From the IMG/VR virus record IMGVR_UViG_3300049027_000115, positions 1 to 54,930 of that record: a stretch of DNA of 54,930 bases. One strand, 5' to 3'. The DNA is from a virus (taxonomy: Duplodnaviria > Caudoviricetes). Below the pieces are notes generated by a model. That model had not been told where the DNA came from, searched no databases, and saw only the letters and a program-made list of their open reading frames with translations. Position numbers and translations under genes: made by a program. Shown piece after piece: positions 445 to 39,786 of this stretch (its first letter is position 1; every line of letters begins with the position of its first letter).

Positions 445-1805
445 TCCTTACAGCCAAACAGACGATAGCGCTCGATCTGCTCGAAGATGAAGAAACGGAA
501 GAGTTGCTGTATGGTGGCGCCGCAGGTGGTGCAAAATCTGTTCTGGGTTGTTACTGGCAACTGAAAAAGCGGTTTAAATATCCCGGCTCACGGGGTTTCA
601 TAGGCAGGGCCTCCTTTAAGACACTGAAGGATACAACCCTCAAAACGTTCTTTGAAGTAGCAAAAATGCAAGGGATAGTAAGAGGCAAACACTTTGATCT
701 TACAGGCCCCTGGGATAAGGAGAATCCAAATTGCTTGCTGTTCGGTAACGGCAGTATGATCTATTTGCGAGACCTGGCAACTTATCCATCCGATCCTGAC
801 TTTGATGAACTGGGGTCGTTGGAGATCACTGACGCATTCATTGATGAGTGCGGGCAGATTAGCCAGAAAGCAAAGGATACATTGAAGACCCGTATCAGGT
901 ACGGGCTCAATCAGTGGGATTTGACTCCAAAGATTCTGTATTCAACCAACCCTGTAAAGAGTTGGCCCTATACGGAGTTCTACCGTCCATCACGTGACGG
1001 TACCATACCATCCTACAGGAAGTTCGTACAGGCCTTTGTCACAGATAATCCACATGCTCCGAAGTCTTATATCCAGCTCTTGCACAGGTTGCCAGAAGGG
1101 CCACAGAAAGAGCGGTTGCTGAAAGGTAATTGGGAGTATGATGATGACCCGGCAGCGTTGATTATCTATGATCGCATCCTGGATTGCTTCACAAATGATT
1201 TCGAGAAACTGAAGGGTAAGCGATGCATCACAGCGGATGTGGCCCGATACGGTAGCGACATCACTGTGATAGGCGTTTGGGATGGATTCCGGGTAACGAT
1301 CTATTGGTACAAAGGATTATCTGTACCGGAAGTAGCTGAGAAGATACGAGGTTTTCAACAGCAGCACGGAATCCCGAATAGCCGAACAGTGGTGGATGAT
1401 GATGGAGTAGGCGGTGGAGTAGTTGATATCGTTGGTTGTATTGGATTCGTAAATAACAGCAGGCCCTGGCCAAATCCGGTTAAGCCTGATCTCGATGAAA
1501 AGGGAAATCCGAAGCCAGAGAACTACGACAACTTGAAGTCTCAATGTTCATACCGAATGGCTCAAAGAGTGAATGATGGCGGTCTATACATTGAAAACGC
1601 CACACCGGAGATGAAAGAAAAGATCACGGAGGAAATGGAGCAGGTTAAGCAAAAGGATGTTGATACAGATGGGAAACGTGGAGTGCTACCGAAAAAGACC
1701 ATCAAAGAGCTTATAGGTAGATCTACCGACTACTGGGATATGATCATGATGAGAGAATTATTGGAACTAAAACCAGTCAAACAAGCAGGCGCTATTTCAT
1801 TATAA
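441..1805 (+). CDS. terL: Terminase large subunit
   Basis: Walker A YGGAAGGAKS, Walker B AFIDEC, STNP motif, nuclease domain ADVARYGSD. Confidence 0.95.
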   Translation: MILTAKQTIALDLLEDEETEELLYGGAAGGAKSVLGCYWQLKKRFKYPGSRGFIGRASFKTLKDTTLKTFFEVAKMQGIVRGKHFDLTGPWDKENPNCLLFGNGSMIYLRDLATYPSDPDFDELGSLEITDAFIDECGQISQKAKDTLKTRIRYGLNQWDLTPKILYSTNPVKSWPYTEFYRPSRDGTIPSYRKFVQAFVTDNPHAPKSYIQLLHRLPEGPQKERLLKGNWEYDDDPAALIIYDRILDCFTNDFEKLKGKRCITADVARYGSDITVIGVWDGFRVTIYWYKGLSVPEVAEKIRGFQQQHGIPNSRTVVDDDGVGGGVVDIVGCIGFVNNSRPWPNPVKPDLDEKGNPKPENYDNLKSQCSYRMAQRVNDGGLYIENATPEMKEKITEEMEQVKQKDVDTDGKRGVLPKKTIKELIGRSTDYWDMIMMRELLELKPVKQAGAISL

Positions 1806-4553: not shown

Positions 4554-5480
4554 ATGCTTACAAAGGCAATGAAGATTAGCAAAGACGGCATTACTATTAA
4601 AGACCTCAGTATCGAGAAGAGGGTAGCTGTAATTGCCCATGCTTCATACAATAGCCTGGACAGAGATGGTGACAGAGCGAATAAGGGCATGTTCACAAAA
4701 TCATGGAATGAGCGATTTGATGATCTACGGTTCTTTCTCAACCATAAGAAGGAATTGGCGCCAGGAAAACCAACAAGGACATGGGAGGATAACGACCATG
4801 CTTACACGGAGGTTTACTTAGGAACGCATACCCTCGGTGAAGATGTGCTGAAACAGATGGACGAAGGAATTATTGTAGCCAGCTCGTATGGTTTTGATCC
4901 GGTAAGAGCAACCAAGATGAGCAAAGGCGGTTACGATTACAAAGAAGTAGCACATCTCGAAACATCGGTGCTCACACACTGGGGTGCTCACCAGGCATCA
5001 GGCGTTGTAAAAGTTACGAAAGCCTTCGATCCGGAAAAGTTAAAGGAATTGTCAAACGACGAAAAGAATTTCCTGCGTCAGCTGATCAATAATCGCACTC
5101 AGGGCCTGATGATGGCCATCAATTACAACAATACGGTTACTGAAGGTTCCGACATGTGGAGCTATATCAATGAGCTCATCGGATCCACATCATACGATAT
5201 TGGTTGGCTCAAACGCAGACTGGAATATGGGGTAAAAGAATGTGAGGATCTGCGCGCCGGTGTAAAAGCAATGAAAAGTTTCATCCGGAACACAAAAGCT
5301 TCGGATGCAGCCATACAACAAATAACGTTCGAGTTAGAACAAACAGAACATCTGTTATCAGAACTTGATACCGCAGCCACCTCTGCGCCGGAGCAATCCA
5401 CCCAGACGCCGACTGTCAGCAAGAGTGATAATAATGAGTTCATCAAACAACTTCATTATTTAAAACTTAAACTGGCATAG
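4554..5480 (+). CDS. HK97-family prohead protease with C-terminal extension
   Basis: DRDGD, FLNH, SSYGF and LETSVL motifs; immediately upstream of the capsid gene. Confidence 0.85.
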   Translation: MLTKAMKISKDGITIKDLSIEKRVAVIAHASYNSLDRDGDRANKGMFTKSWNERFDDLRFFLNHKKELAPGKPTRTWEDNDHAYTEVYLGTHTLGEDVLKQMDEGIIVASSYGFDPVRATKMSKGGYDYKEVAHLETSVLTHWGAHQASGVVKVTKAFDPEKLKELSNDEKNFLRQLINNRTQGLMMAINYNNTVTEGSDMWSYINELIGSTSYDIGWLKRRLEYGVKECEDLRAGVKAMKSFIRNTKASDAAIQQITFELEQTEHLLSELDTAATSAPEQSTQTPTVSKSDNNEFIKQLHYLKLKLA

Positions 5481-5482
5481 CC

Positions 5483-6757
5483 ATGAAAAGAATCTTTACT
5501 GGCTTGTTCTTCTTCGATGCTGCGGCAGGCGAAGGGGGCAAGGGCGGCTCTGAAGAGCTGGTGATCCTCAAACAAGTGGATCAGAAAGTAGACCAAATCA
5601 AAAAGGACTACGAAAAAGAAGTGCGTGAGCTCAAAGAAGCCAACACGCAAGCAGAAACAAAATACAAAGACTACGAGCAAAAGGTAACTGATCTCAATAC
5701 AGAGCTTGCCGCCAAGGGTGCTACTCTGAAAGAGATTCAGGATGAAGTGATACAGCTCAAAGCGAAGAGTGGCCAAATGTCTGTTCAGACGGAGAAACAC
5801 TCCTCCATGCGCGGGCTTATTCTGAAGGAATGGGATGCCGCAGCTGAGAAGCTGAAGAACTTCCGTTCTGACATTCACAACAAGAACAATCCTTTCCCTG
5901 TACTGGAAACTAAGGCTGTTGGTACTATGACCAACGCTAACAATATCACAGGTGTTTCCATCAACGGTGTACCAACCTGGAATCAGGAGTTTGCGGTACG
6001 CGGCCGTATGAAAGTGCATGCGCGTGATATCATCCGCACGATCAATACCGGTACCGGTATCTATTTATTCCTGCGTCAAAACATCCCTGCTGGTGAAGGC
6101 TCCGTGGGTGCCACTGCGGGCCCTGGCCAAGTAAAGCCATCCAGGGATTACGACAACACGATGATCACCGTGACCGCCAAGTATCGCGCGGGAACAGTTG
6201 ATGTCGCTGCAGAAATGGAGCAGGATATTCCTGGCCTCGGTGAATACATCACAGAAGAATTGACGGAAGACTATCTGCGCGCTGAGACTTTCGACTTTAT
6301 GCAAAGTCTGGTAAGCGCAGCCTCTGCCAACAATTCTCTTCCTCCTGGTGTGACTGTGCCAGCTGAAAAGATCCCTCACTATGTGGCGAATCTGGAACAA
6401 AACGACTATGATCCTGACACGCTCATTGTGCGTCCGCGTCAGTGGGCAAATTTGCTCAATACAAAACCATCAGACTACAGTACGCCCGGCGGATTCGTTG
6501 TATTGCCAAACGGCGAAATCCTGTTTGCTGGCCTTCGCCTCGTGAAGATGTCTACCAATGCTATCAGTGATAGCCAGATCGTGGTGGGCGACTTCCGTAA
6601 GGCTCTGATCGTGCAAAAGTCTGGTGAAGGCTTCCGTGTGGAAATGTTCAAGAGCCATGACAAACACGTCTATCAGAATATCATCACCTTCCGTGGTGAG
6701 GCTCGTGCAGAACTCGCAATCCTGCGTCCTGACGCCTTCCTGGTAGGAACCATGTAA
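5483..6757 (+). CDS. Major capsid protein, HK97 fold with N-terminal coiled-coil delta domain
   Basis: Coiled-coil N-terminus; C-terminal VGDF, FRGEAR and RPDAF motifs. Confidence 0.93.
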   Translation: MKRIFTGLFFFDAAAGEGGKGGSEELVILKQVDQKVDQIKKDYEKEVRELKEANTQAETKYKDYEQKVTDLNTELAAKGATLKEIQDEVIQLKAKSGQMSVQTEKHSSMRGLILKEWDAAAEKLKNFRSDIHNKNNPFPVLETKAVGTMTNANNITGVSINGVPTWNQEFAVRGRMKVHARDIIRTINTGTGIYLFLRQNIPAGEGSVGATAGPGQVKPSRDYDNTMITVTAKYRAGTVDVAAEMEQDIPGLGEYITEELTEDYLRAETFDFMQSLVSAASANNSLPPGVTVPAEKIPHYVANLEQNDYDPDTLIVRPRQWANLLNTKPSDYSTPGGFVVLPNGEILFAGLRLVKMSTNAISDSQIVVGDFRKALIVQKSGEGFRVEMFKSHDKHVYQNIITFRGEARAELAILRPDAFLVGTM

Positions 6758-13453: not shown

Positions 13454-13906
13454 ATGAACAACACAGGAAGATGCTCCATTCAGTTGAATGGAGAGCAGAT
13501 TGATTTATTGTTCGGCATGCCGGCAGTAGAATATATCGCGAAAAAGGTTGAAGAAGGCAGCATGGTACTGGATGATGATGGTAACACCATCGGCAATTCC
13601 AGCATTGCCTTCCTGATTCATGCTGGGTACTGGAACCATTGTATAGCTAACGGTTTGACACCCAAAAAAAAGATAGCTGATTTCTTTGATGCGGTTGAAG
13701 ATATGGTGGACACAGAAGAAGGCCAGCGTGATCTTGTCATTGTTGCAGAAACTTACAGGGATAGCAAAAGCACCAAAAAGCAGTTGGACCGCATTCAAAA
13801 ACAGGTAGAGGAGATAAAAAAAAAGACAGAAGAATTGAGTGGGAAGAAATCGAATCCTTCTGTTATGGAGAACTCGGACTCACCAGTGAGCAGTACTACC
13901 GATTGA
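13454..13906 (+). CDS. Tail assembly chaperone (G-like)
   Basis: Between tail tube and tape measure; contains the slippery site. Confidence 0.8.
   Translation: MNNTGRCSIQLNGEQIDLLFGMPAVEYIAKKVEEGSMVLDDDGNTIGNSSIAFLIHAGYWNHCIANGLTPKKKIADFFDAVEDMVDTEEGQRDLVIVAETYRDSKSTKKQLDRIQKQVEEIKKKTEELSGKKSNPSVMENSDSPVSSTTD
13819..13825 (+). other. -1 programmed ribosomal frameshift site A AAA AAG
   Basis: Codons ATA AAA AAA AAG; the -1 frame is open from 13825 into ORF 13903-14178. Confidence 0.85.
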
Positions 13907-29753: not shown

Positions 29754-31313
29754 ATGACAACAGCGTTTGGGTATATGCGCCTTTCAGGCGAGGACCAATC
29801 CTTCTATTCCACCGAGTTTCAGGAGGCGGGCATTCGTGAGTATTGTAAGCGACATGGTATTGAGCTGAAACAAATCTTGCTGGATAATGGAGAGAGCTCC
29901 TATACTTTTGAACGCAAAGCCTTCAAAGACATGGAGGCGCTTTTTAAAAAGCACAAGGCAGATTATCTTATAGTCTACCACCTGGATCGATTTGGCCGAA
30001 ACATGGCCGAGGCAATGCTGAAGGTAAAGTACTTCCTTGATAAAGGGATCAAGGTCCGCGATATAAGTGAGCCTTTGGATATGGATGATACGGACATGAA
30101 CACGTTCATGATGCGTACCATGAAGTTCATGGCTGCTGAAACAGAATTGCACCGGATCCGGGCAAGAACTCAATCCGGTTTGCGCCAGGCAAAATTGAAC
30201 GGCAGGTTTGCGGGCGCCGCTCCTTATGGCTACCGCAATGGCAGAGACGAAGAAAGCAAAAGTGTGCTGATAGTTGAAGAGGAAGAAGCAACCATCGTAA
30301 GAAAAATTTTTCAACTATACATTGCTGGCGCTACAGTTGAAACGATCAGGAAGATCGTTAAGGAAAAAGGGTTCAAGAAAACTGGAACCTCCACCATACA
30401 ACGTATGCTGGCCAATCCTGTATATGCCGGCCTCGTTCATGTGCCAGGAATAAAAAATAGTCCAGCGCAGACAGTAAAAGGAATTCACACCGCGCTGGTG
30501 ACAGAATACGATTATTATCATGTGCAGGAAAAATTAAATCGAAAGACTGTCATCACCCAAAACCGGGAAGAGGTTCCTTTGCGGGGTGTATTAAGATGCA
30601 CATGCGGAGCATTGATGACAGCCGGCAATTCCAGAAATAAGGTGGGCAATTATTTTTGGTATTATGTATGCCGGAAAGGGCACAAGGTGAATCTTTCTGC
30701 TATTAAAATATACAAACAGTTTATTGAACTACTGCAGGCGCTTTCGCTTAAAGAGCGCGAGGTCCAACAAATTCGCATTAAGCTGACAGAAAAAATGCAG
30801 GGCTTTTTGAGCAACCATGAATCCAAAGAGAAAGAGATCCGCAAACGTCTTTCTATAGTCGAAAACAAAATACAGACAGCGGAAGAGCGATATCTCACTG
30901 GGATTGGCAGCGAGAAAGCTTATCACAAAGTGATGACTGAGATGAAAACAGAGCGTGCGAGAATATATAACGAACTCGCCCAGGCAACTACTAACGCCAG
31001 TGTATATTGGGAGCGGCTGGAAGTTGTTTTAAACACATTGGAAAATGTCGCTGAGGTATTCGAAAAATTCTCGTTAGAAAAAAAACATCAGTTCATAAAC
31101 CAGGTGTTCAACCACTCTCTTAACCACGATGGTGCTATCTATCGAACACAAAAATTGCACGAAGTTTTTCGGCATAAGACAAACGAACTCAAAGAAAAAG
31201 GGCTGCTCCATGTGGACAGCCCTGTAGTTGATTTGAGAAGTACTCTCGTGAGTACCGGGGACGAGAGCCCAATCGAACTCATAGACAGACTTTATAAGGT
31301 GCTGGCAGGGTAA
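29754..31313 (+). CDS. int: Large serine recombinase (integrase)
   Basis: GYMRLS catalytic Ser, DRFGRN, APYGY, NPVYAG, Zn ribbon CTCG..YYVC, coiled coil. Confidence 0.95.
   Translation: MTTAFGYMRLSGEDQSFYSTEFQEAGIREYCKRHGIELKQILLDNGESSYTFERKAFKDMEALFKKHKADYLIVYHLDRFGRNMAEAMLKVKYFLDKGIKVRDISEPLDMDDTDMNTFMMRTMKFMAAETELHRIRARTQSGLRQAKLNGRFAGAAPYGYRNGRDEESKSVLIVEEEEATIVRKIFQLYIAGATVETIRKIVKEKGFKKTGTSTIQRMLANPVYAGLVHVPGIKNSPAQTVKGIHTALVTEYDYYHVQEKLNRKTVITQNREEVPLRGVLRCTCGALMTAGNSRNKVGNYFWYYVCRKGHKVNLSAIKIYKQFIELLQALSLKEREVQQIRIKLTEKMQGFLSNHESKEKEIRKRLSIVENKIQTAEERYLTGIGSEKAYHKVMTEMKTERARIYNELAQATTNASVYWERLEVVLNTLENVAEVFEKFSLEKKHQFINQVFNHSLNHDGAIYRTQKLHEVFRHKTNELKEKGLLHVDSPVVDLRSTLVSTGDESPIELIDRLYKVLAG
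31228..31280. other. Candidate attP inside the 3' end of the integrase gene
   Basis: Inverted repeat CTCTCGT-N11-ACGAGAG with imperfect outer arms GTTGATTTG/CCAATCGAAC. Confidence 0.4.
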
Positions 31314-33304: not shown

Positions 33305-33907
33305 TTACTTGCGAAAACTGTCCACTTCCTCATTGTCTTTATTCTGCTCTTCCAAAAGCTTCGAAATTTCACGAGTGCCCGCTTCTACGATTAAGTCGTT
33401 TTCTGAGGGGCGTTTCTCTATCCGGGCCAGTGACATTAAAATGGTCTCATGATATGCTCGGTCATGCCTTGATAACGAAGATAACAACTGTTGCATTGCC
33501 ACTAAATTGAGATCAATTACTTTTTGCAGTTGCTTCTTATCATCTTCCAGCTTTTTTTTATCGGATTTCAGAGCATCGACATATTCCTGGGCGGTTAATT
33601 TAATTGGACCGCTCAGGAATATGTCATCCTTATGAGTGTTATCATTCCCTTTGTTGTCATTAAGTTGAATGGGTGTTTCATGTGGAACTTTGTCCAAATT
33701 CTCTTTGGCAGTTCCTTCTTGTTTTCTTAGCCATTCAACAATAGTCGCATGATCCTCAGATTTGGGATTCGTTCCAACCGACCGCCATTTGTAGACGCGA
33801 TCCCGCGGGATCTTAGTCTCTTCTTCAAACTTCAGGACCGATATGTTTTTCGATTCTAAAACCTGGAAGAGCTTTACAACTAATTTGTTCTGCCTTTTTG
33901 CAGCCAT
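33305..33907 (-). CDS. CI-like immunity repressor (N-terminal HTH, coiled-coil C-terminus)
   Basis: ISVLKFEEETKIPRDRVYKW HTH; divergent from a Cro-like gene across tandem operators. Confidence 0.75.
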   Translation of the reverse strand: MAAKRQNKLVVKLFQVLESKNISVLKFEEETKIPRDRVYKWRSVGTNPKSEDHATIVEWLRKQEGTAKENLDKVPHETPIQLNDNKGNDNTHKDDIFLSGPIKLTAQEYVDALKSDKKKLEDDKKQLQKVIDLNLVAMQQLLSSLSRHDRAYHETILMSLARIEKRPSENDLIVEAGTREISKLLEEQNKDNEEVDSFRK

Positions 33908-33980: not shown

Positions 33981-34002
33981 CAATCGTCATAACGAATATA
34001 CA

Positions 34003-34236
34003 ATGAAAGTTTCAAAAGCGGCAATAACGGCAATTACAGAGGATAGGAAGATTCTATTTGCGGTTGCTCTTGCTCTGGAATTCACAGAACAATGGACTCG
34101 GAGGTTATTGGAAAAGAATAAGAATAATGGGCCATTAACTACAGCAAAAGCTCTTGAGGCCATCAGGAAGGAGACAGGGCTAAACGATGATCAGATACTG
34201 GAGCGTGAAGAGGTGGGAACTGAGGAGCAAAGCTAA
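34003..34236 (+). CDS. Cro-like regulator
   Basis: First rightward early gene; VALALEFTEQWTRRLL..LTTAKALEAIRKETGL; ATG at 34003. Confidence 0.75.
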   Translation: MKVSKAAITAITEDRKILFAVALALEFTEQWTRRLLEKNKNNGPLTTAKALEAIRKETGLNDDQILEREEVGTEEQS

Positions 34237-34305
34237 TTGCGAAAAGTCAATTGTGCAATACCGCAACTGTTAAAAAGTAAACCGACCATTTAAATAGTAC
34301 TTGTT

Positions 34306-34512
34306 ATGAAAAGTATCACCCGCATTGCTGTATTGAATTTCTGGACTCGCGAACTTAATTCAGGCCGAGAGACCTATAAAGATGAATGCGGGGAAAAGGA
34401 TTATACCTTGATGGGTGAGCACGCCGCAGAGCATTTTAGCGTAGAGAGTGAGCAGGGCAATTCTGAAATCGAACAGGACATTTTTCAGTGGACCACCGAG
34501 CTGATTTTTTAA
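34306..34512 (+). CDS. Hypothetical acidic protein
   Basis: 68-aa ORF in the early operon. Confidence 0.6.
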   Translation: MKSITRIAVLNFWTRELNSGRETYKDECGEKDYTLMGEHAAEHFSVESEQGNSEIEQDIFQWTTELIF

Positions 34513-34552
34513 CCGCCGCTAATCTGATTAACTAACTATTCAACCGCTACAA

Positions 34553-34765
34553 ATGCCCGCATACATGGAAAAATATATTGTCTATCACGGTGTAACTGTT
34601 TATAGAAGCGCTAACACACATCCCGGCGCTAAGACTAGATCTTTTGTTGTTCTATCTGCGGACGATAGAGTGGCAGGGAGATTCCGCTATATAGTTAACG
34701 ACATAAAATCTCTGGATGAAGCATTATGCAATGCATATAGAGCAATCCGAAACCTTAACCATTAA
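34553..34765 (+). CDS. Hypothetical protein flanked by 18-bp direct repeats
   Basis: ATTAACTAACTATTCAAC at 34527 and 34761. Confidence 0.65.
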   Translation: MPAYMEKYIVYHGVTVYRSANTHPGAKTRSFVVLSADDRVAGRFRYIVNDIKSLDEALCNAYRAIRNLNH

Positions 34766-34788
34766 CTAACTATTCAACTTAACCAATC

Positions 34789-34884
34789 ATGAAACAAATC
34801 AATTTCACACCAGCAAGAACTGTCGCCATCATCGTTGCTTTTCTTGCCCTGGTATTTTCGATCACAGCTATTCCTTTTATCTAA
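34789..34884 (+). CDS. 31-aa single-TM peptide (not in the track)
   Basis: MKQINFTPARTVAIIVAFLALVFSITAIPFI; typical leader; abuts the next ATG. Confidence 0.55.
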   Translation: MKQINFTPARTVAIIVAFLALVFSITAIPFI

Positions 34885-35010
34885 ATGCAAAGCTTTTCCA
34901 ACATACCACCTGAAGAACAACTGATCGACCTTATAGTCGATGCGTTGTTTGACCAGATAATGAATATGGAGGAAAAGACTATTCCTGAGCTCGTAAAGCA
35001 AACAGCATGA
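34885..35010 (+). CDS. 41-aa acidic peptide (not in the track)
   Basis: MQSFSNIPPEEQLIDLIVDALFDQ...; TAAATG junction upstream and ATGA overlap downstream. Confidence 0.55.
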   Translation: MQSFSNIPPEEQLIDLIVDALFDQIMNMEEKTIPELVKQTA

Positions 35011-35252
35011 AACTGATCACCTTCACCACACCGCTCGATGCTTCGCTGTACAGCTTCCTGTTACCAGGCTGCCAGGAGGTGAAGGTTACCTACAGTGTGT
35101 TGGAGGTCGAGGGGAAAGTTTCCTTCCATGACGTGGAAGAGATAGGAGCGAGACCGAAGCTGATGCTGCTGATCAACAACTGGCCGGCTGTCTACGACCA
35201 CGCACACAAAGCCGCGCTAAACAATTACCATTCACTTTTCGTAAACCCGTAA
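35007..35252 (+). CDS. Hypothetical protein
   Basis: 81 aa; ATGA overlap with the preceding peptide. Confidence 0.65.
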   Translation: MKLITFTTPLDASLYSFLLPGCQEVKVTYSVLEVEGKVSFHDVEEIGARPKLMLLINNWPAVYDHAHKAALNNYHSLFVNP

Positions 35253-35255
35253 CCC

Positions 35256-35477
35256 ATGGAACTGGCAATCTTATTCGCCTTATCGTACATCGTCTGTTTT
35301 TTAATTATCGGTTATACATTACTGTTATTGCACCAGTCACAAAATGAATATCCCAGTCATGTTACTCATCATCCTTGGCGCTTTCGCTTTCATCATGTTG
35401 ATGGCTGCGCTGATCCGCCGAAACAGAAGGAGCCGCTATACCGTGAGTTACAAAGGGAAGCTCTTGTACGACGGTAA
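35256..35477 (+). CDS. Hypothetical membrane protein (extent uncertain)
   Basis: N-terminal TM segment; the 3' part overlaps the 35344 ORF. Confidence 0.4.
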   Translation: MELAILFALSYIVCFLIIGYTLLLLHQSQNEYPSHVTHHPWRFRFHHVDGCADPPKQKEPLYRELQREALVRR

Positions 35478-35520
35478 ACCAGTGAAGCTGGACGATCACG
35501 AATTGATGATCAGCGAATGA
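35344..35520 (+). CDS. 58-aa membrane-anchored protein (not in the track)
   Basis: MNIPVMLLIILGAFAFIMLMAALIRRNRRSR: TM helix followed by a positive-inside cluster. Confidence 0.6.
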   Translation: MNIPVMLLIILGAFAFIMLMAALIRRNRRSRYTVSYKGKLLYDGKPVKLDDHELMISE

Positions 35521-36000
35521 TCTGGTACATACTCGCGTTCCTCTGGTTTCTGATGATGTTGGACCGTGGAGATAGAGGGATGCGCAACTTATAATTTCCG
35601 AAAAAAGCGTCAGCGGCCTGCTGACAATGTAGGGTTTAGGGTTGCCGGGTGCGGGTTTCGGGTTAAGTCCCGCCCCGGTTTTTAAAAAGATTTCATAGGG
35701 CACGCAATCGTATACCGGTGTGGTTCTTTCCAGGCGTGACCGGTTTTTAAGACATTCTTCCGAAAAAGCAACATCGTTTTGAATAGAGGATAAGGTAAAG
35801 GTTGAGGCTTTGGTAGCATTTTCATGGGTTAATGATTATTGGTTAATGGCCGGGAGAGATCCTGCTCCCGGTTTTTTCAGACTAAACGACTTCGGGGTAT
35901 TCCCGGGGATCATCATAGGACACTCCGCACCATTTGGTTGCGTGTGTGGTTCACAGTTAGTAAACCCCCGGCGTTGTTTCTACTCTGCTGGTTTCTTTGA
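35521..36000 (+). ncRNA. Candidate array of small RNAs, each ending in a GC hairpin with T tail
   Basis: Hairpins at 35645-35683, 35714-35748, 35848-35877 and 35963-35998, separated by G/T-rich segments; no credible CDS. Confidence 0.5.
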
Positions 36001-36029
36001 GCATTATTAAATCAAAATAAACTAAGTAC

Positions 36030-36158
36030 ATGAAAACAATGAATCCCGGCGCTCAGGCAGCGCAAACAAACGACGGCGCAGAACAGGCGAGTGAAGTAAA
36101 CGGTACTGAAGAAACTGCAACCGAAAACCAGGAAGGCGCAGGCTCACTGGTGGATTAA
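36030..36158 (+). CDS. 42-aa acidic low-complexity peptide (not in the track)
   Basis: MKTMNPGAQAAQTNDGAEQASEVNGTEETATENQEGAGSLVD; A-rich leader; terminator-like hairpin at 36168-36206. Confidence 0.6.
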   Translation: MKTMNPGAQAAQTNDGAEQASEVNGTEETATENQEGAGSLVD

Positions 36159-36219
36159 CAATTCATCGCCCCGGACGCTGTGAAGAGGTGGGCCGGGGCT
36201 TCTTTTAAAATTATTCAAA

Positions 36220-36456
36220 ATGCAGATCAATAAAGTTTTCAAATCAGGTGAATGCGAAATGGATGTGTGGGTCGAGTACAATGCCGGAACGAACACGGTG
36301 GATAGTATTCTCTCTGTAGGATTCACCTGGTGCGGCCTTACTGTGGACGCCTCGGATATGATGATGAAATATTTTGAGCCCTGCCTGAATAAATTGATCG
36401 ATGAGACTGATTGGAGGGAAGTGGCGTGTGATGAAGTTATAAACGAAGTATTCTAA
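36220..36456 (+). CDS. Hypothetical acidic protein
   Basis: 78 aa; upstream of the recombination genes. Confidence 0.65.
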   Translation: MQINKVFKSGECEMDVWVEYNAGTNTVDSILSVGFTWCGLTVDASDMMMKYFEPCLNKLIDETDWREVACDEVINEVF

Positions 36457-36471
36457 AATCAATTATAGAAA

Positions 36472-37251
36472 ATGGAAAATAAACAATTGGAGGTTATCAA
36501 AAAGCTGAATGAAAGTGTGGGCTCTGTTTTATCTAAGGACGGACTGCTTGGCTTTGAGAAAGCCTATAAGATCGCTGATGCTGTTCAGCAATTGAAAGAT
36601 TTGTTGACAACTGAATACATGAAGCCGATCATGGCACTTCAGGGGAATAAGCTTGGGTTCAAAACCGACAGGGACAAGGATGGAGGATATTCCCAGGATG
36701 TGGTGAAGAATTGTCTGATTGAAGCAGTGCTTACTGGTGTACAGCCGTTCGGAAATCAATTCAACATCATTGCTGGCAACTGTTACATCACAAAAGAAGG
36801 CTTCGGTTACCTGCTGGCAAATTTCCCGGGCCTTTCCTATGATATCGTTCCACAGCTACCTCGCATCAAAGATGGTTCTGCAGCTATTGTGATGGAAACA
36901 GAATGGACCTTGAATGGCATTACCAAGAAGAAGTCTTTGGACATTCCTGTGAAAGTAAACCAGCACATGGGGACAGATGCAGTGATCGGAAAGGCAACCC
37001 GGAAATCCCGCGCATGGTTGTACAATTCTATCTCAGGAACTGAAATCGCTGACGGCGATATCCAGGATGTAGATGCAACTGTGGTAGGGTCCAAAATAAA
37101 CGAGCAGTTTAACCTTGAAGATTTGCAGTTCCTCTATGAAGCAAAAAAAGCAGCACTCACGCCGGAAGAACAAAAGGATGCAGAACGCATTCTGAACAAC
37201 AAGGAAGAAAAATCTTACTCCAAACTCCACAAACTGCTTCAATCCAAATGA
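36472..37251 (+). CDS. Putative single-strand annealing protein (RecT/Red-beta-like)
   Basis: Coupled to the exonuclease gene; GVQPFGNQFNII..YITKEG segment; assignment rests mainly on context. Confidence 0.55.
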   Translation: MENKQLEVIKKLNESVGSVLSKDGLLGFEKAYKIADAVQQLKDLLTTEYMKPIMALQGNKLGFKTDRDKDGGYSQDVVKNCLIEAVLTGVQPFGNQFNIIAGNCYITKEGFGYLLANFPGLSYDIVPQLPRIKDGSAAIVMETEWTLNGITKKKSLDIPVKVNQHMGTDAVIGKATRKSRAWLYNSISGTEIADGDIQDVDATVVGSKINEQFNLEDLQFLYEAKKAALTPEEQKDAERILNNKEEKSYSKLHKLLQSK

Positions 37252-37991
37252 TCAATAACGCCCAACGAATCGGAAACTTCACCAGCAGCAATATAGCTGC
37301 TCTTTTGACTACTGATAAGTCAGGAAAAAGTTTTGGCAAACCAGCATTAACCTACATCGAGGAAAAGAATATGGAACGCAGGTTAGGTTTGTCGCTGAAT
37401 GCTGAATCAAATGCCAGAGCGCTTTCATGGGGGAAGTTTTTGGAAGGTGCCGTCTTCGATTTGTTGGGCATGGCATATACTCTTTCCAGCACTGATACTA
37501 TCGTTCATCCCACAATTCCATTTTGGTCCGGATCGCCAGATCTCACAAAAGCTGAAACTGTCGGTGATATCAAATGCCCGCTTACCAGGAAATCATTTTG
37601 TCAACTGGTGCATCCGCTGTATGATGGCCTACAGGGGGTTGAAGCGATGAACAAAGTGCGGGAGACCCACAAAGATGGAGAGGATTTCTACTGGCAACTC
37701 GTTTCAAATGCGATCCTCACAAATAGACGCTTCGCTGAACTGATCGTATACATGCCATATCAATCTGAATTAGCAGCTATACAATCTATGGCTGAAGGAA
37801 ACAAAAACTTGTACTGGTTGTGGTCTTCGAGTGAAGATGAACTCCCGTTCCTCAAAGATGATGGTTACTACAGAAACATCAATATCATCCATTTTGAAGT
37901 GCCAGAGGAAGACAAAGAATTGCTGACTGAAAAAGTAAAAGCTGCAGGTGAGAAACTGATAACAATCAAAACCGAAAAAGTGAAGTTATGA
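37248..37991 (+). CDS. YqaJ / lambda-exonuclease-like nuclease
   Basis: RIGNFTSS, WGKFLE, SGSPD, DIKCP and YWQL motifs. Confidence 0.85.
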   Translation: MINNAQRIGNFTSSNIAALLTTDKSGKSFGKPALTYIEEKNMERRLGLSLNAESNARALSWGKFLEGAVFDLLGMAYTLSSTDTIVHPTIPFWSGSPDLTKAETVGDIKCPLTRKSFCQLVHPLYDGLQGVEAMNKVRETHKDGEDFYWQLVSNAILTNRRFAELIVYMPYQSELAAIQSMAEGNKNLYWLWSSSEDELPFLKDDGYYRNINIIHFEVPEEDKELLTEKVKAAGEKLITIKTEKVKL

Positions 37992-38395
37992 CATGTGAAT
38001 TCCCCGGCTGTAAAAGCCATCCACAAAAAAACGGTTACTGCATCGGTCACAGAATCTATGCTAGTACGCAAGTAGAGAAAGAGAAGCCGAAGCAGATCGC
38101 TAAACGCTCAGAGAAAATGAAAGAGACCATGAAGTCTTTGAAGAAAGAGTATGCTCTTTACCTGGCGCAGCCCGAGAATAAGTACTGCCAACTGAAGATG
38201 CATGGCTGCACAAAGGTTGCAACTGCTGTTCACCACACGAAAGGCAGAGAAGGAGCAAATCTTACCGATCAAAACACCTGGATGCCCAGTTGCTCTCACT
38301 GCAATTTGATGACAGAAGAGAAAGACGCCGAAGCCAGGGAGAAAGGTGTGAAGAAATCCAAGCATACACCGAACTACAAAAGGAGCAAGGTATAA
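37988..38395 (+). CDS. Zn-binding HNH-like protein
   Basis: CEFPGC..C..H; CQLKMHGC..HHTKGR..CSHCN. Confidence 0.65.
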   Translation: MTCEFPGCKSHPQKNGYCIGHRIYASTQVEKEKPKQIAKRSEKMKETMKSLKKEYALYLAQPENKYCQLKMHGCTKVATAVHHTKGREGANLTDQNTWMPSCSHCNLMTEEKDAEAREKGVKKSKHTPNYKRSKV

Positions 38396-38437
38396 GCGAA
38401 AAACCATCCGGCCCTATTTCTTTCAAATTTGACAACA

Positions 38438-38833
38438 ATGAAATATACTCCTGAAAAAATTGATACATTGGAGAACACAGATGTCTTCGTGTTCGGTACA
38501 AACCAATTCGGCACACACGCAGGTGGTGCTGCAGCTTATGCTCAACAGAATTTTGGTGCTATCGATGCTGTTCCATTAGGACTGGCTGGAAAGACTTATG
38601 GCATCATTACAACCTCTTATACTAAGGAGGTTATCTCACTCGACTTCATCGAGAACCAGGTAAAAGTATTATACCAGTTTGCAAGGTTCCGTGAAGAGCT
38701 CACTTTCTACGTTACAAAGATCGGAACCGGTATTGCCGGGTTCATGATCGAGGATATCGCTAACATCTTCTTCAAACTTGAAACACTCCGTCCCTCAAAC
38801 ATCATTCTCCCAATCGAATTCACTCAACAATGA
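38438..38833 (+). CDS. Macro-domain-like phage protein
   Basis: VFVFGTN..G.HAGGAA and FYVTKIGTGIAG motifs. Confidence 0.65.
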   Translation: MKYTPEKIDTLENTDVFVFGTNQFGTHAGGAAAYAQQNFGAIDAVPLGLAGKTYGIITTSYTKEVISLDFIENQVKVLYQFARFREELTFYVTKIGTGIAGFMIEDIANIFFKLETLRPSNIILPIEFTQQ

Positions 38834-39786
38834 CAAAGAAAAAGGCTGCTGTATCGGTAGCAGAACAACCGGTAGAAAAGATTACCAAAGGTTATAAAGT
38901 GACTGATCCTGACATGCAATGCAGAGGTTTTCAGTACGAGCTCGCAAAAGTGTATGAGCACAAAGGAAGCATTTCTCCTTGCCAATCAGGCTTTCATTTT
39001 TGCCCCAAAGTAGCAGATTGTTTCAGTTATTATCAATTCGATAAACGTAATCGTGTTTTTGAAGTTGAAGCTCTGGGTGAAGTGATTGAGCATGAAGATA
39101 AAATTGTAGCCGGCAGGATCCGGTTTGTTAGGGAGATACCCTGGGAGGAAATGCTGAAGCTGGCGAATGAGGGAAATGATAATGTTGGTTTGAGTAACAC
39201 CGGCGACAGTAACACCGGCCACAGTAACACCGGCGACAGGAACACCGGCCACAGTAACACCGGCGACAGGAACACCGGCCACAGTAACACCGGCGACAGG
39301 AACACCGGCCACAGGAACACCGGCCACAGTAACACCGGCGACTGGAACACCGGCGACAGGAACACCGGCCACAGTAACACCGGCGACTGGAACACCGGCG
39401 ACAGGAACACCGGCCACAGTAACACCGGCGACAGGAACACCGGAGCTTTCTGTACGGAGACTCCACCTTTCACCCTCTTCGATAAACCGACTACCTGGAC
39501 GCTGCAGGATTTTGAAAGCAGTAATGCGTTCCGTCTCATGTCCACTCATGTAAATACGAAAATGTGGGTTCCGGATTACGCCATGACAGAAGCCGAAAAA
39601 GAAGCAAACAAAGGATGGAAAACTGCGGGAGGCTATTACAAGGATATTCCTTTCAAAGAGGCCTTTACCAATGCCTGGCACAATTGGGACGAAGACAATC
39701 GCACCTCCTTCACAAATCTGCCAAATTTTGATGCAGATAAGTTCGAGCAGATCACGGGTGTGATAGTTGAACAAAAGAAAAAGTAA
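38830..39786 (+). CDS. Pentapeptide-repeat protein with phage N-terminal domain
   Basis: GYK..CRGFQYE..CQSGFHFC domain followed by NTG(D/H)(S/R/W) repeats. Confidence 0.85.
   Translation: MTKKKAAVSVAEQPVEKITKGYKVTDPDMQCRGFQYELAKVYEHKGSISPCQSGFHFCPKVADCFSYYQFDKRNRVFEVEALGEVIEHEDKIVAGRIRFVREIPWEEMLKLANEGNDNVGLSNTGDSNTGHSNTGDRNTGHSNTGDRNTGHSNTGDRNTGHRNTGHSNTGDWNTGDRNTGHSNTGDWNTGDRNTGHSNTGDRNTGAFCTETPPFTLFDKPTTWTLQDFESSNAFRLMSTHVNTKMWVPDYAMTEAEKEANKGWKTAGGYYKDIPFKEAFTNAWHNWDEDNRTSFTNLPNFDADKFEQITGVIVEQKKK
39196..39444 (+). repeat. 15-bp tandem repeat, 16 full units plus a partial
   Basis: AACACCGGC(G/C)AC(AGT/AGG/TGG). Confidence 0.97.

Follow-up and report, generated by a model that had tools for sequence, protein, structure and literature searches.

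Small-RNA control in the Bacteroidota is recent knowledge, obtained almost wholly from gut Bacteroides. FopS, a 'family of paralogous sRNAs' (small RNAs) of Bacteroides thetaiotaomicron (Rfam RF04319), is described as having an unpaired 5' seed and a Rho-independent terminator; it pairs near the start codon of susC-type mRNAs and blocks translation, and RbpB counteracts it (PMC11697453). The same account states that the FopS and GibS small RNAs of Bacteroides pair at translation initiation regions, and it notes a FopS sequence in one Caudovirales phage (PMC11697453). A 2026 review lists FopS and GibS likewise. We analysed the whole virus record of a soil bacteriophage (54,930 nucleotides (nt), referred to below as the window), in which a gap between the small protein genes of the early operon, at approximately 35595-36029, probably holds tandem phage-borne small-RNA genes of this FopS/GibS type, on the plus strand and co-oriented with the operon. 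A first-pass annotation of this DNA had proposed a processed multi-guide RNA array against host genes and knew of no described system of such a form. FopS and GibS, however, are described systems (PMC11697453). The units in the gap appear to represent FopS-type small RNAs in a diversified, tandem form carried by a phage, and not a new kind of system.

Trans-acting small RNAs are also encoded by enterobacterial prophages, and DicF is one of them. Others are described under the names svsR (PMC12803456) and StxS (PMC7547250). These RNAs resemble the units reported here in being products of phage or prophage genes and short base-pairing RNAs that act on host mRNAs, and some alter the susceptibility to other phages. 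However, they have no sequence relation to the present units, belong to another phylum and depend on Hfq, and in the parts of the literature that describe them none appears as a tandem copy of a core host small RNA. A further comparison is offered by the early operons of lambdoid phages, whose terminators are read through by antitermination. The likeness lies in strong intrinsic terminators between early gene blocks, oriented along transcription, whereas no conserved host-derived seed sequences precede the lambdoid terminators. No antiterminator or nut/put-like element turned up in our analysis, which included no search aimed at them.

Probable small-RNA units in the gap and their chromosomal relatives

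Between the end of a 58-residue open reading frame (ORF) at 35520 and an ATG at 36030, the longest ORF on either strand has no more than 66 residues. A hydrophobic micro-ORF of 25 residues (35517-35594, plus strand) is possible, with its ATG overlapping the stop of the 58-residue ORF (35344-35520) as ATGA. It may be real; therefore, the noncoding stretch is given as about 35595-36029, and for this stretch the earlier statement that no credible coding sequence is present was borne out. The plus strand is G/T-rich, as also stated, with a GC skew of +0.13 to +0.24 and an AT skew of -0.03 to -0.32 over 35500-35999, and the five strings that the annotation quoted in reverse complement are all present. 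The significance of hairpins was judged by folding energy against 200 shuffled sequences. The four plus-strand hairpins with T tails that had been reported are found, with CCGG in the stems of all four; two are strong (H2 and H4) and two are weak (H3 and H6). We agree that the plus strand is the meaningful one and that its G/U-rich segments with terminators look like trans-acting RNAs.

The gap is best read as two to four small-RNA genes, of which the unit at 35782-35877 (unit 3) is the best and that at 35689-35748 (unit 2) the second; those at 35627-35683 (unit 1) and 35913-35998 (unit 4) are candidates. The best RNA would consist of two single-stranded G/U-rich modules and one intrinsic terminator. 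Module A, AAUAGAGGAUAAGGUAAAGGUUGAGGCUUUGGUAGC (35782-35817), has counterparts in chromosomal intergenic DNA of three Chitinophagaceae genomes and carries the core GGAUAAGGU of a conserved Chitinophagaceae RNA. Module B, AUUUUCAUGGGUUAAUGAUUAUUGGUUAAUG (35818-35847), is a FopS-like single-stranded 5' region that starts with AUUUUCAUGGG and opens with an anti-start-codon box, UUUUCAU. It is followed by H4 (stem 35848-35873, T6 at 35872-35877), a strong intrinsic terminator found by two scans (-15.6 kcal/mol; 1 of 200 shuffles as good), at which the RNA of modules A and B is predicted to end. In the predicted fold of 35783-35880 the UUUUCAU-type seed is largely unpaired, and the seed part of the RNA forms only weak pairing. 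Upstream of module A lie the second copy of TTCCGAAAAA (35758-35767) and the sequence TCGTTTTG (35774-35781). The latter stands where the chromosomal copies have TAnnTTTG, and it may be the promoter of module A.

The chromosomal relative was found in a sample of 401 Chitinophagaceae genomes centred on a genome that carries a related prophage (L011). It lies beside the module-A motif in one genome (G157) and at other sites in further genomes. A 32-nt pattern matches in 145 of the 401 genomes, and the reversed control gives 0. On its G/T-rich strand, the gene consists of a 5' part (UUUUCAUAGGAUAAGGUUUAAUGGUUAAUGG through GAUUAG), a G+C-rich hairpin and a U-run. The 5' part, about 42 nt long, is near-invariant, with 35 invariant columns among 30 distinct copies. 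These copies comprise 27 distinct hairpins versus 8 distinct 5' parts; the hairpin reaches -14.4 kcal/mol or lower in all 30 and is followed by at least four T in 27. The housekeeping promoter element of the Bacteroidota is TAnnTTTG (TTTG), and its strict form occurs at a fixed upstream distance in 12 of 40 distinct upstream regions, with near-matches in 22 of 40. A flavoprotein gene (PF02441) adjoins 24 of 32 host loci, often with a thioredoxin-like gene in between (for example among L083-L119; the copy of L088 lies at 1459-1534, minus strand). The RNA usually occurs in one to three copies per genome at a syntenic site, and one genome has at least three paralogues. When 301 genomes of the phylum were sampled, the 25-nt core (at most 3 mismatches) was present in 5, all of which were already in the Chitinophagaceae sample.

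No Rfam family reaches its threshold at the host loci. Under relaxed settings the best relevant match is FopS, with 24.3 bits against a gathering threshold of 56 (aligned over the full length of the model, 1-71), and GibS (RF04182) scores 24.9 bits against 115. The layout of the host RNA is that of FopS, about 70 nt with an unpaired UUUUCAU start at the 5' end and then a Rho-independent terminator, and in the phage unit an unpaired seed of the UUUUCAU type is directly followed by H4. Counted by hand, module B is identical to the FopS consensus of Rfam at about three quarters of 28 positions. The 5' UUUUCAUAG seed region (termed R1 in GibS) is common to GibS and the host RNA, and GibS too acts at translation initiation regions. 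There are also clear differences. Both the phage unit and the host RNA stay below the Rfam threshold, the host family belongs to Chitinophagaceae and not to Bacteroidaceae, and the host RNA usually has one to three copies at a syntenic site while FopS has 12-15. The phage RNA would place two seed modules on one terminator within a tandem set. GibS is 145 nt long and has a second seed (R2). A literature search returned no prior description of what appear to be FopS-type small RNAs in Chitinophagaceae. The data point to a FopS-like small RNA outside the Bacteroidaceae, which about a third of the sampled Chitinophagaceae genomes would encode at a constant chromosomal position.

A model of the 30 host copies (model R1), run over both strands of the window, gives a single match with E < 1: 35817-35877, plus strand, from model position 1 through the U-run (20.9 bits; E 0.005, a rough value because the calibration was shortened). 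The MAFFT alignment of the host copies scrambles their variable hairpins, and RNAalifold derived from it a spurious 8-pair stem with no covariation; the model is therefore in effect a sequence model. Compared with the host 5' part, 35817-35877 differs at several positions and the GAUUAG part is missing. When 35256-36471 was compared with the 401 genomes, the three best matches all fell on 35760-35821. Two of the genomes (G008 and G342) carry module A in the same chromosomal intergenic locus, 28/29 identical to the window, and the third (G157) has the motif twice in that locus, beside a core-type copy. Neither copy in G157 follows a start codon, and the module is therefore not a protein gene. 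An nhmmer profile of the three loci recovers window 35760-35821 (E 1.7e-6); 29 related phage loci yield no match. The phage copy is placed in the early operon between small ORFs and recombination genes, not in the flavoprotein/thioredoxin-like synteny of the host. Since the match of model R1 has module A directly upstream, with GGAUAAGGU and TCGTTTTG, we infer a single RNA, about 95 nt long, in which two seed modules share one terminator.

The three genomes with module A (L039, L040 and L046) have a conserved noncoding block of about 180 nt, flanked by a TonB-receptor-like gene on one side and a small gene on the other. Sequences like module A occur within it, together with internal inverted repeats, and the block may encode a longer member of this RNA family. 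The possibility that G008 and G342 encode a conserved small protein was considered and rejected, as neither frame nor start is kept in G157. A phage attachment site (attP) was also rejected as the origin of the shared sequence: the serine integrase gene is 4.5 kb away, the sequence is embedded in the early operon, and what it matches on the chromosome is an RNA-like module that exists in several forms.

Unit 2 opens with GAUUUCAUAGGGCACGCAAUCGUAU (35689-35713, plus strand), in which the host-RNA box UUCAUAGG is followed by a different 16-nt sequence. It continues into H3 (35714-35744, then T5 to 35748; -9.9 kcal/mol), a weak terminator-like hairpin. The motif TTCATRGG occurs five times in 110 kb (both strands of the window), two of these in the gap, at 35692 and 35821. 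The plus-strand build of a TTCATRGG-like box, a short spacer, a hairpin and a T-run is found only at 35693-35748 and 35822-35877, a motif that was defined post hoc with the data already seen. Unit 1 consists of the single-stranded segment AUGUAGGGUUUAGGGUU (35627-35643), which resembles the host-RNA core AAGGUUUAAUGGUU by eye only, and of H2 (stem 35644-35679, T5 at 35679-35683), a strong intrinsic terminator (-21.5 kcal/mol; 3 of 200 shuffles as good). About 26 nt ahead of its G/U-rich segment stands the first copy of TTCCGAAAAA (35596-35605). The similarity of unit 1 to module B and its hairpin was equalled by 1 of 300 shuffles and is partly due to the shared hairpin and T-run. Unit 4, the weakest (35913-35998), has the box UCAUAGGACAC, a G/U-rich stretch and the weak hairpin H6 (35968-35991, -8.6 kcal/mol; 23 of 200 shuffles as good) with the tail UUUCUUU. 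The box TCATAGGNCAC of unit 2 is found again at its start, 35913. Units 1 and 4 alike show short repeats and pairwise similarities that few shuffles equal, in part an effect of the common hairpin and T-run.

A consensus terminator scan listed only one hairpin in the gap, H1 on the minus strand (35608-35626, T6 tail, -9.6 kcal/mol). We think that it missed H2 and H4 because H2 is bulged and the stem of H4 can be extended by G-U pairs into the T-run. An energy-based scan recovered both, and these are 2 of its 15 plus-strand matches genome-wide. Folding of the whole region is unremarkable (z -0.6 for the plus strand and -1.6 for the minus strand).

Recurrence in other phages and possible targets

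Two genes downstream of the gap (36472-37991) recur together in related phages. We read the first as a recombination gene from its position beside an exonuclease-like partner; a Pfam search gave no match for either gene, so that the name is our reading only. With the protein of this gene, 29 related loci were found, at most 72% identical. In 14 of them that were compared, there was no DNA similarity upstream of the gene. A unit occurs at the equivalent place and on the same strand in two loci whose recombination proteins are 71-72% identical to that of the window. In L001 (17-68), UUUUAUAGGAUAAGGUUUAAGGUUAA precedes a hairpin unlike that of the window and U6, and the homologous gene lies 830 nt downstream; in L010 (5568-5625), CUUUCAUCGGAUAGGGUUUAAGGGUAG precedes a hairpin and U6, with the gene 380 nt downstream. 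The hairpins differ from those of the window and still fold.

Short forms are also found in unrelated viral contigs. The exact 16-nt core has 54 matches in 53 viral contigs, where about 20-30 would be expected by chance on a rough estimate. A terminator follows within 75 nt on the same strand in 26 of the 54, and TTC precedes most of those. Pairs of units in tandem are present in three viral loci (L209, L179 and L113). The data point to phages with shortened, diversified copies of the host RNA, which in some of these phages stand in tandem within early operons; the published record mentions a single phage copy. As a separate observation, two viral contigs (L113 at 915-985 and L114 at 13480-13570) hold a canonical host-type copy directly beside a divergent ORF. 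These copies may mark an element that has integrated next to the small-RNA gene, or the viral call may extend into the host flank.

If the units act as FopS does on susC-type mRNAs, their unpaired 5' segments would base-pair with particular host mRNAs at the start codon and in the leader directly before it, which would block ribosome loading. Module A retains the host-RNA core, so that some targets of the host RNA may be shared by the phage RNA, early in infection or on induction. Such an RNA would be a simple model of how a phage could reprogram translation in hosts of this phylum, whose mRNAs have no Shine-Dalgarno sequences; to block translation there, it suffices to mask the start codon together with a few bases upstream of it. 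If the targets include receptors or motility and secretion proteins, a new route to the exclusion of other phages or to host takeover would be indicated; if the units act only as terminators, the finding is ordinary.

Target searches were made in five genomes, none of them known to be the host of the phage, and a match was counted at a start codon when it was located at the initial ATG of an ORF with 60 or more residues. For the host RNA, 6 of the 25 best non-self short matches were antisense at a start codon, while the sense control gave 0 of 25. Four of these six ORFs have signal-peptide-like starts by our reading, and their Pfam names are mixed.

A broader proposal can be made, which we hold tentatively and regard as doubtful. 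Temperate phages of Chitinophagaceae, and perhaps of the wider Bacteroidota, would carry tandem short copies of the host small RNA that keep the box and the terminator and diversify the seeds. Expressed from early operons, these copies would hijack a FopS-like control network of the host and shut off envelope or secreted proteins. The phage might profit if its own receptor were among them, through the exclusion of other phages, or if gliding and type IX secretion components were; the lead here is a match in one genome (G011) to a GldN-like protein. Over about 40 nt of that genome (L038; G011:C61:23083-23125), module A shares 88% identity with the coding sense strand, to which the phage plus-strand RNA would be antisense. 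A match of this level is present in 1 of the 401 genomes. The coding region is presumably GldN-like, as read from its translation. In other genomes, weaker matches to module A lie in an unrelated ORF (about 260 residues), where they too encode the peptide PLPYP.

Weighing the alternative explanations

Several results weigh against small-RNA genes of the FopS/GibS type. The earlier claim that the segments are antisense to translation-start regions is supported by the UUUCAU boxes of the FopS/GibS kind and by the homology. Enrichment at host start codons, the check which the annotation itself had named, is absent for the phage units: 7 of 30 matches were antisense at a start in the five genomes versus 6 of 30 in the sense orientation, and one of the seven is a false ORF inside 16S ribosomal RNA. 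Matches of the gap in ten genomes are all at chance level. None of the five seeds pairs better with the start regions of the phage's own 81 genes than with internal windows, and the same was seen with 67 sampled host start regions from 30 loci. The seeds were also considered as generic anti-leader sequences, and the supposed leader motif CCATTAACC occurs in 0 of the 67 host start regions; given this absence and the lack of enrichment, the idea was dropped. At the level of families, the host RNA is sub-threshold for FopS, a Rfam search of window 35590-35900 with E up to 10 gave no FopS or GibS match, and the E-value of model R1 is rough. At the level of units, H3 folds no better than shuffled sequences (56 of 200 as good), units 1 and 4 rely on weak similarity and weak hairpins, TCGTTTTG falls short of the full TAnnTTTG, and no unit has a demonstrated promoter. 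Conservation is patchy, as the unit is present in only 2 of the 27 related loci with at least 150 nt upstream and missing from 25. Moreover, the unit of L010 overlaps the last codons of a membrane-like ORF of 49 residues (5439-5588) and could therefore be a mere gene end with its terminator. RNA at this place in L010 could derive from the 3' untranslated end.

A first alternative is that of plain terminators or attenuators that would stage the early operon in the manner of the lambdoid tR and tL, with functionless segments and CAU boxes and with short RNAs as by-products. H2 and H4 are strong and lie in operon direction, the next small ORF is also followed by a terminator (H7), and the position of the L010 unit at a small-ORF end and the absence of a shown promoter fit as well. 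Terminated phage leader transcripts can themselves be regulatory RNAs, as the account of StxS indicates (PMC7547250). However, terminators alone do not explain why the segments ahead of the hairpins are homologous to a near-invariant host RNA, or why the build of seed and terminator recurs with unrelated hairpins in L001, L010 and about 26 other viral contigs. One terminator can also both gate an operon and end a small RNA, so that the two functions are compatible. We consider the explanation by terminators unlikely.

Functionless captured host DNA is less probable still. The gap would then contain a decaying fragment of a small-RNA locus, acquired by illegitimate recombination and kept as a passenger. 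The near identity of module A to chromosomal loci (28/29), the divergence of module B from the host consensus at several positions and the retention of a unit in 2 of 27 related loci agree with this. A passenger would not be expected to keep its strong terminators intact and its 5' part unpaired, to be found at corresponding positions in three phages with neighbouring recombination proteins of only about 70% identity, where the hairpins differ and still fold, or to recur as short phage-type forms in many viral contigs.

The array of the first-pass annotation, one long plus-strand transcript cut at the hairpins into guide RNAs against host defence genes, is very improbable. Several tandem units do lie within 400 nt in one operon, and short repeats mark their borders (TTCCGAAAAA, TCATAGGNCAC and CCGGTTTTTAA, each twice). 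The two positions given for TTCCGAAAAA, 35596 and 35758, are indeed its only exact copies in the window, and at least two copies occur in 8 of 100 shuffles. Yet the repeats of the gap are only 10-14 nt long, in two or three copies at irregular spacing, without repeat-spacer regularity, and the hairpin sequences differ. Each unit has its own terminator, the U-runs after the hairpins are terminator-like and there are no conserved processing sites; the homologous host genes are single and free-standing, with promoter-like motifs. Nothing supports defence genes as targets, and no match to one was seen. Minus-strand micro-ORFs, that is, a protein of 47 residues (35825 down to 35682) with a C/A-rich leader and ended by H1, are hardly credible: the ATG-started ORF exists and the T6 hairpin lies 56 nt past its stop, but no homologue was found among proteins of 25-83 residues (the only sizes searched), the homologous chromosomal copies keep neither frame nor start, the same strand of L010 reads M-K-D-stop, and the T-run and promoter-like motif of the host gene are on the G/T-rich strand.

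Surroundings of the gap

A large serine recombinase (integrase) gene is located at 29754-31313. The minus-strand gene block ends at 33907, and the plus-strand early operon begins near 33898. The gap is preceded by small hydrophobic ORFs (35344-35520 and perhaps 35517-35594) and followed by ORFs of 42 (from 36030) and 78 residues. The 42-residue ORF (36030-36158) is acidic, and behind it stands the terminator-like hairpin H7 (36168-36199, -20.2 kcal/mol) with the tail CUUCUUUU; this plus-strand segment (36030-36207) is outside the finding and not like a small-RNA unit. None of 12 small ORFs at 34306-36456, including the 47-residue minus-strand ORF, recurs in the 29 related loci. A scan of the whole window for transfer and transfer-messenger RNAs found none, the four Rfam matches in 34000-37500 are all irrelevant, and blastn of 34300-38400 against 50,697 phage records gave no match.

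Within the gap, a further plus-strand hairpin, H5 (35888-35911), lacks a T tail (-11.2 kcal/mol; 20 of 200 shuffles as good). H1 suggests a minus-strand transcript that ends near 35600, for which no gene accounts. The loop and 3' arm of H2 include 14 nt (35660-35673) that are identical, in sense orientation, to a conserved stretch of 16S ribosomal RNA. Several genomes have multiple-copy matches to it, one locus (L169) shows the 16S context, and the chance expectation is about 0.004 per query by a rough count.

Contigs from four DNA sequencing runs are the same as the window wherever they cover 35000-36500; therefore, there was no variation to analyse. The phage has a natural insertion/deletion variant at window 35339, shortly before the ATG at 35344: 39 extra letters are present in contigs from the runs X4 and X5, and in X6 they appear as a loose end. 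Further along the early operon, 38830-39786 encodes a protein with a DUF7666 domain and pentapeptide repeats according to Pfam.

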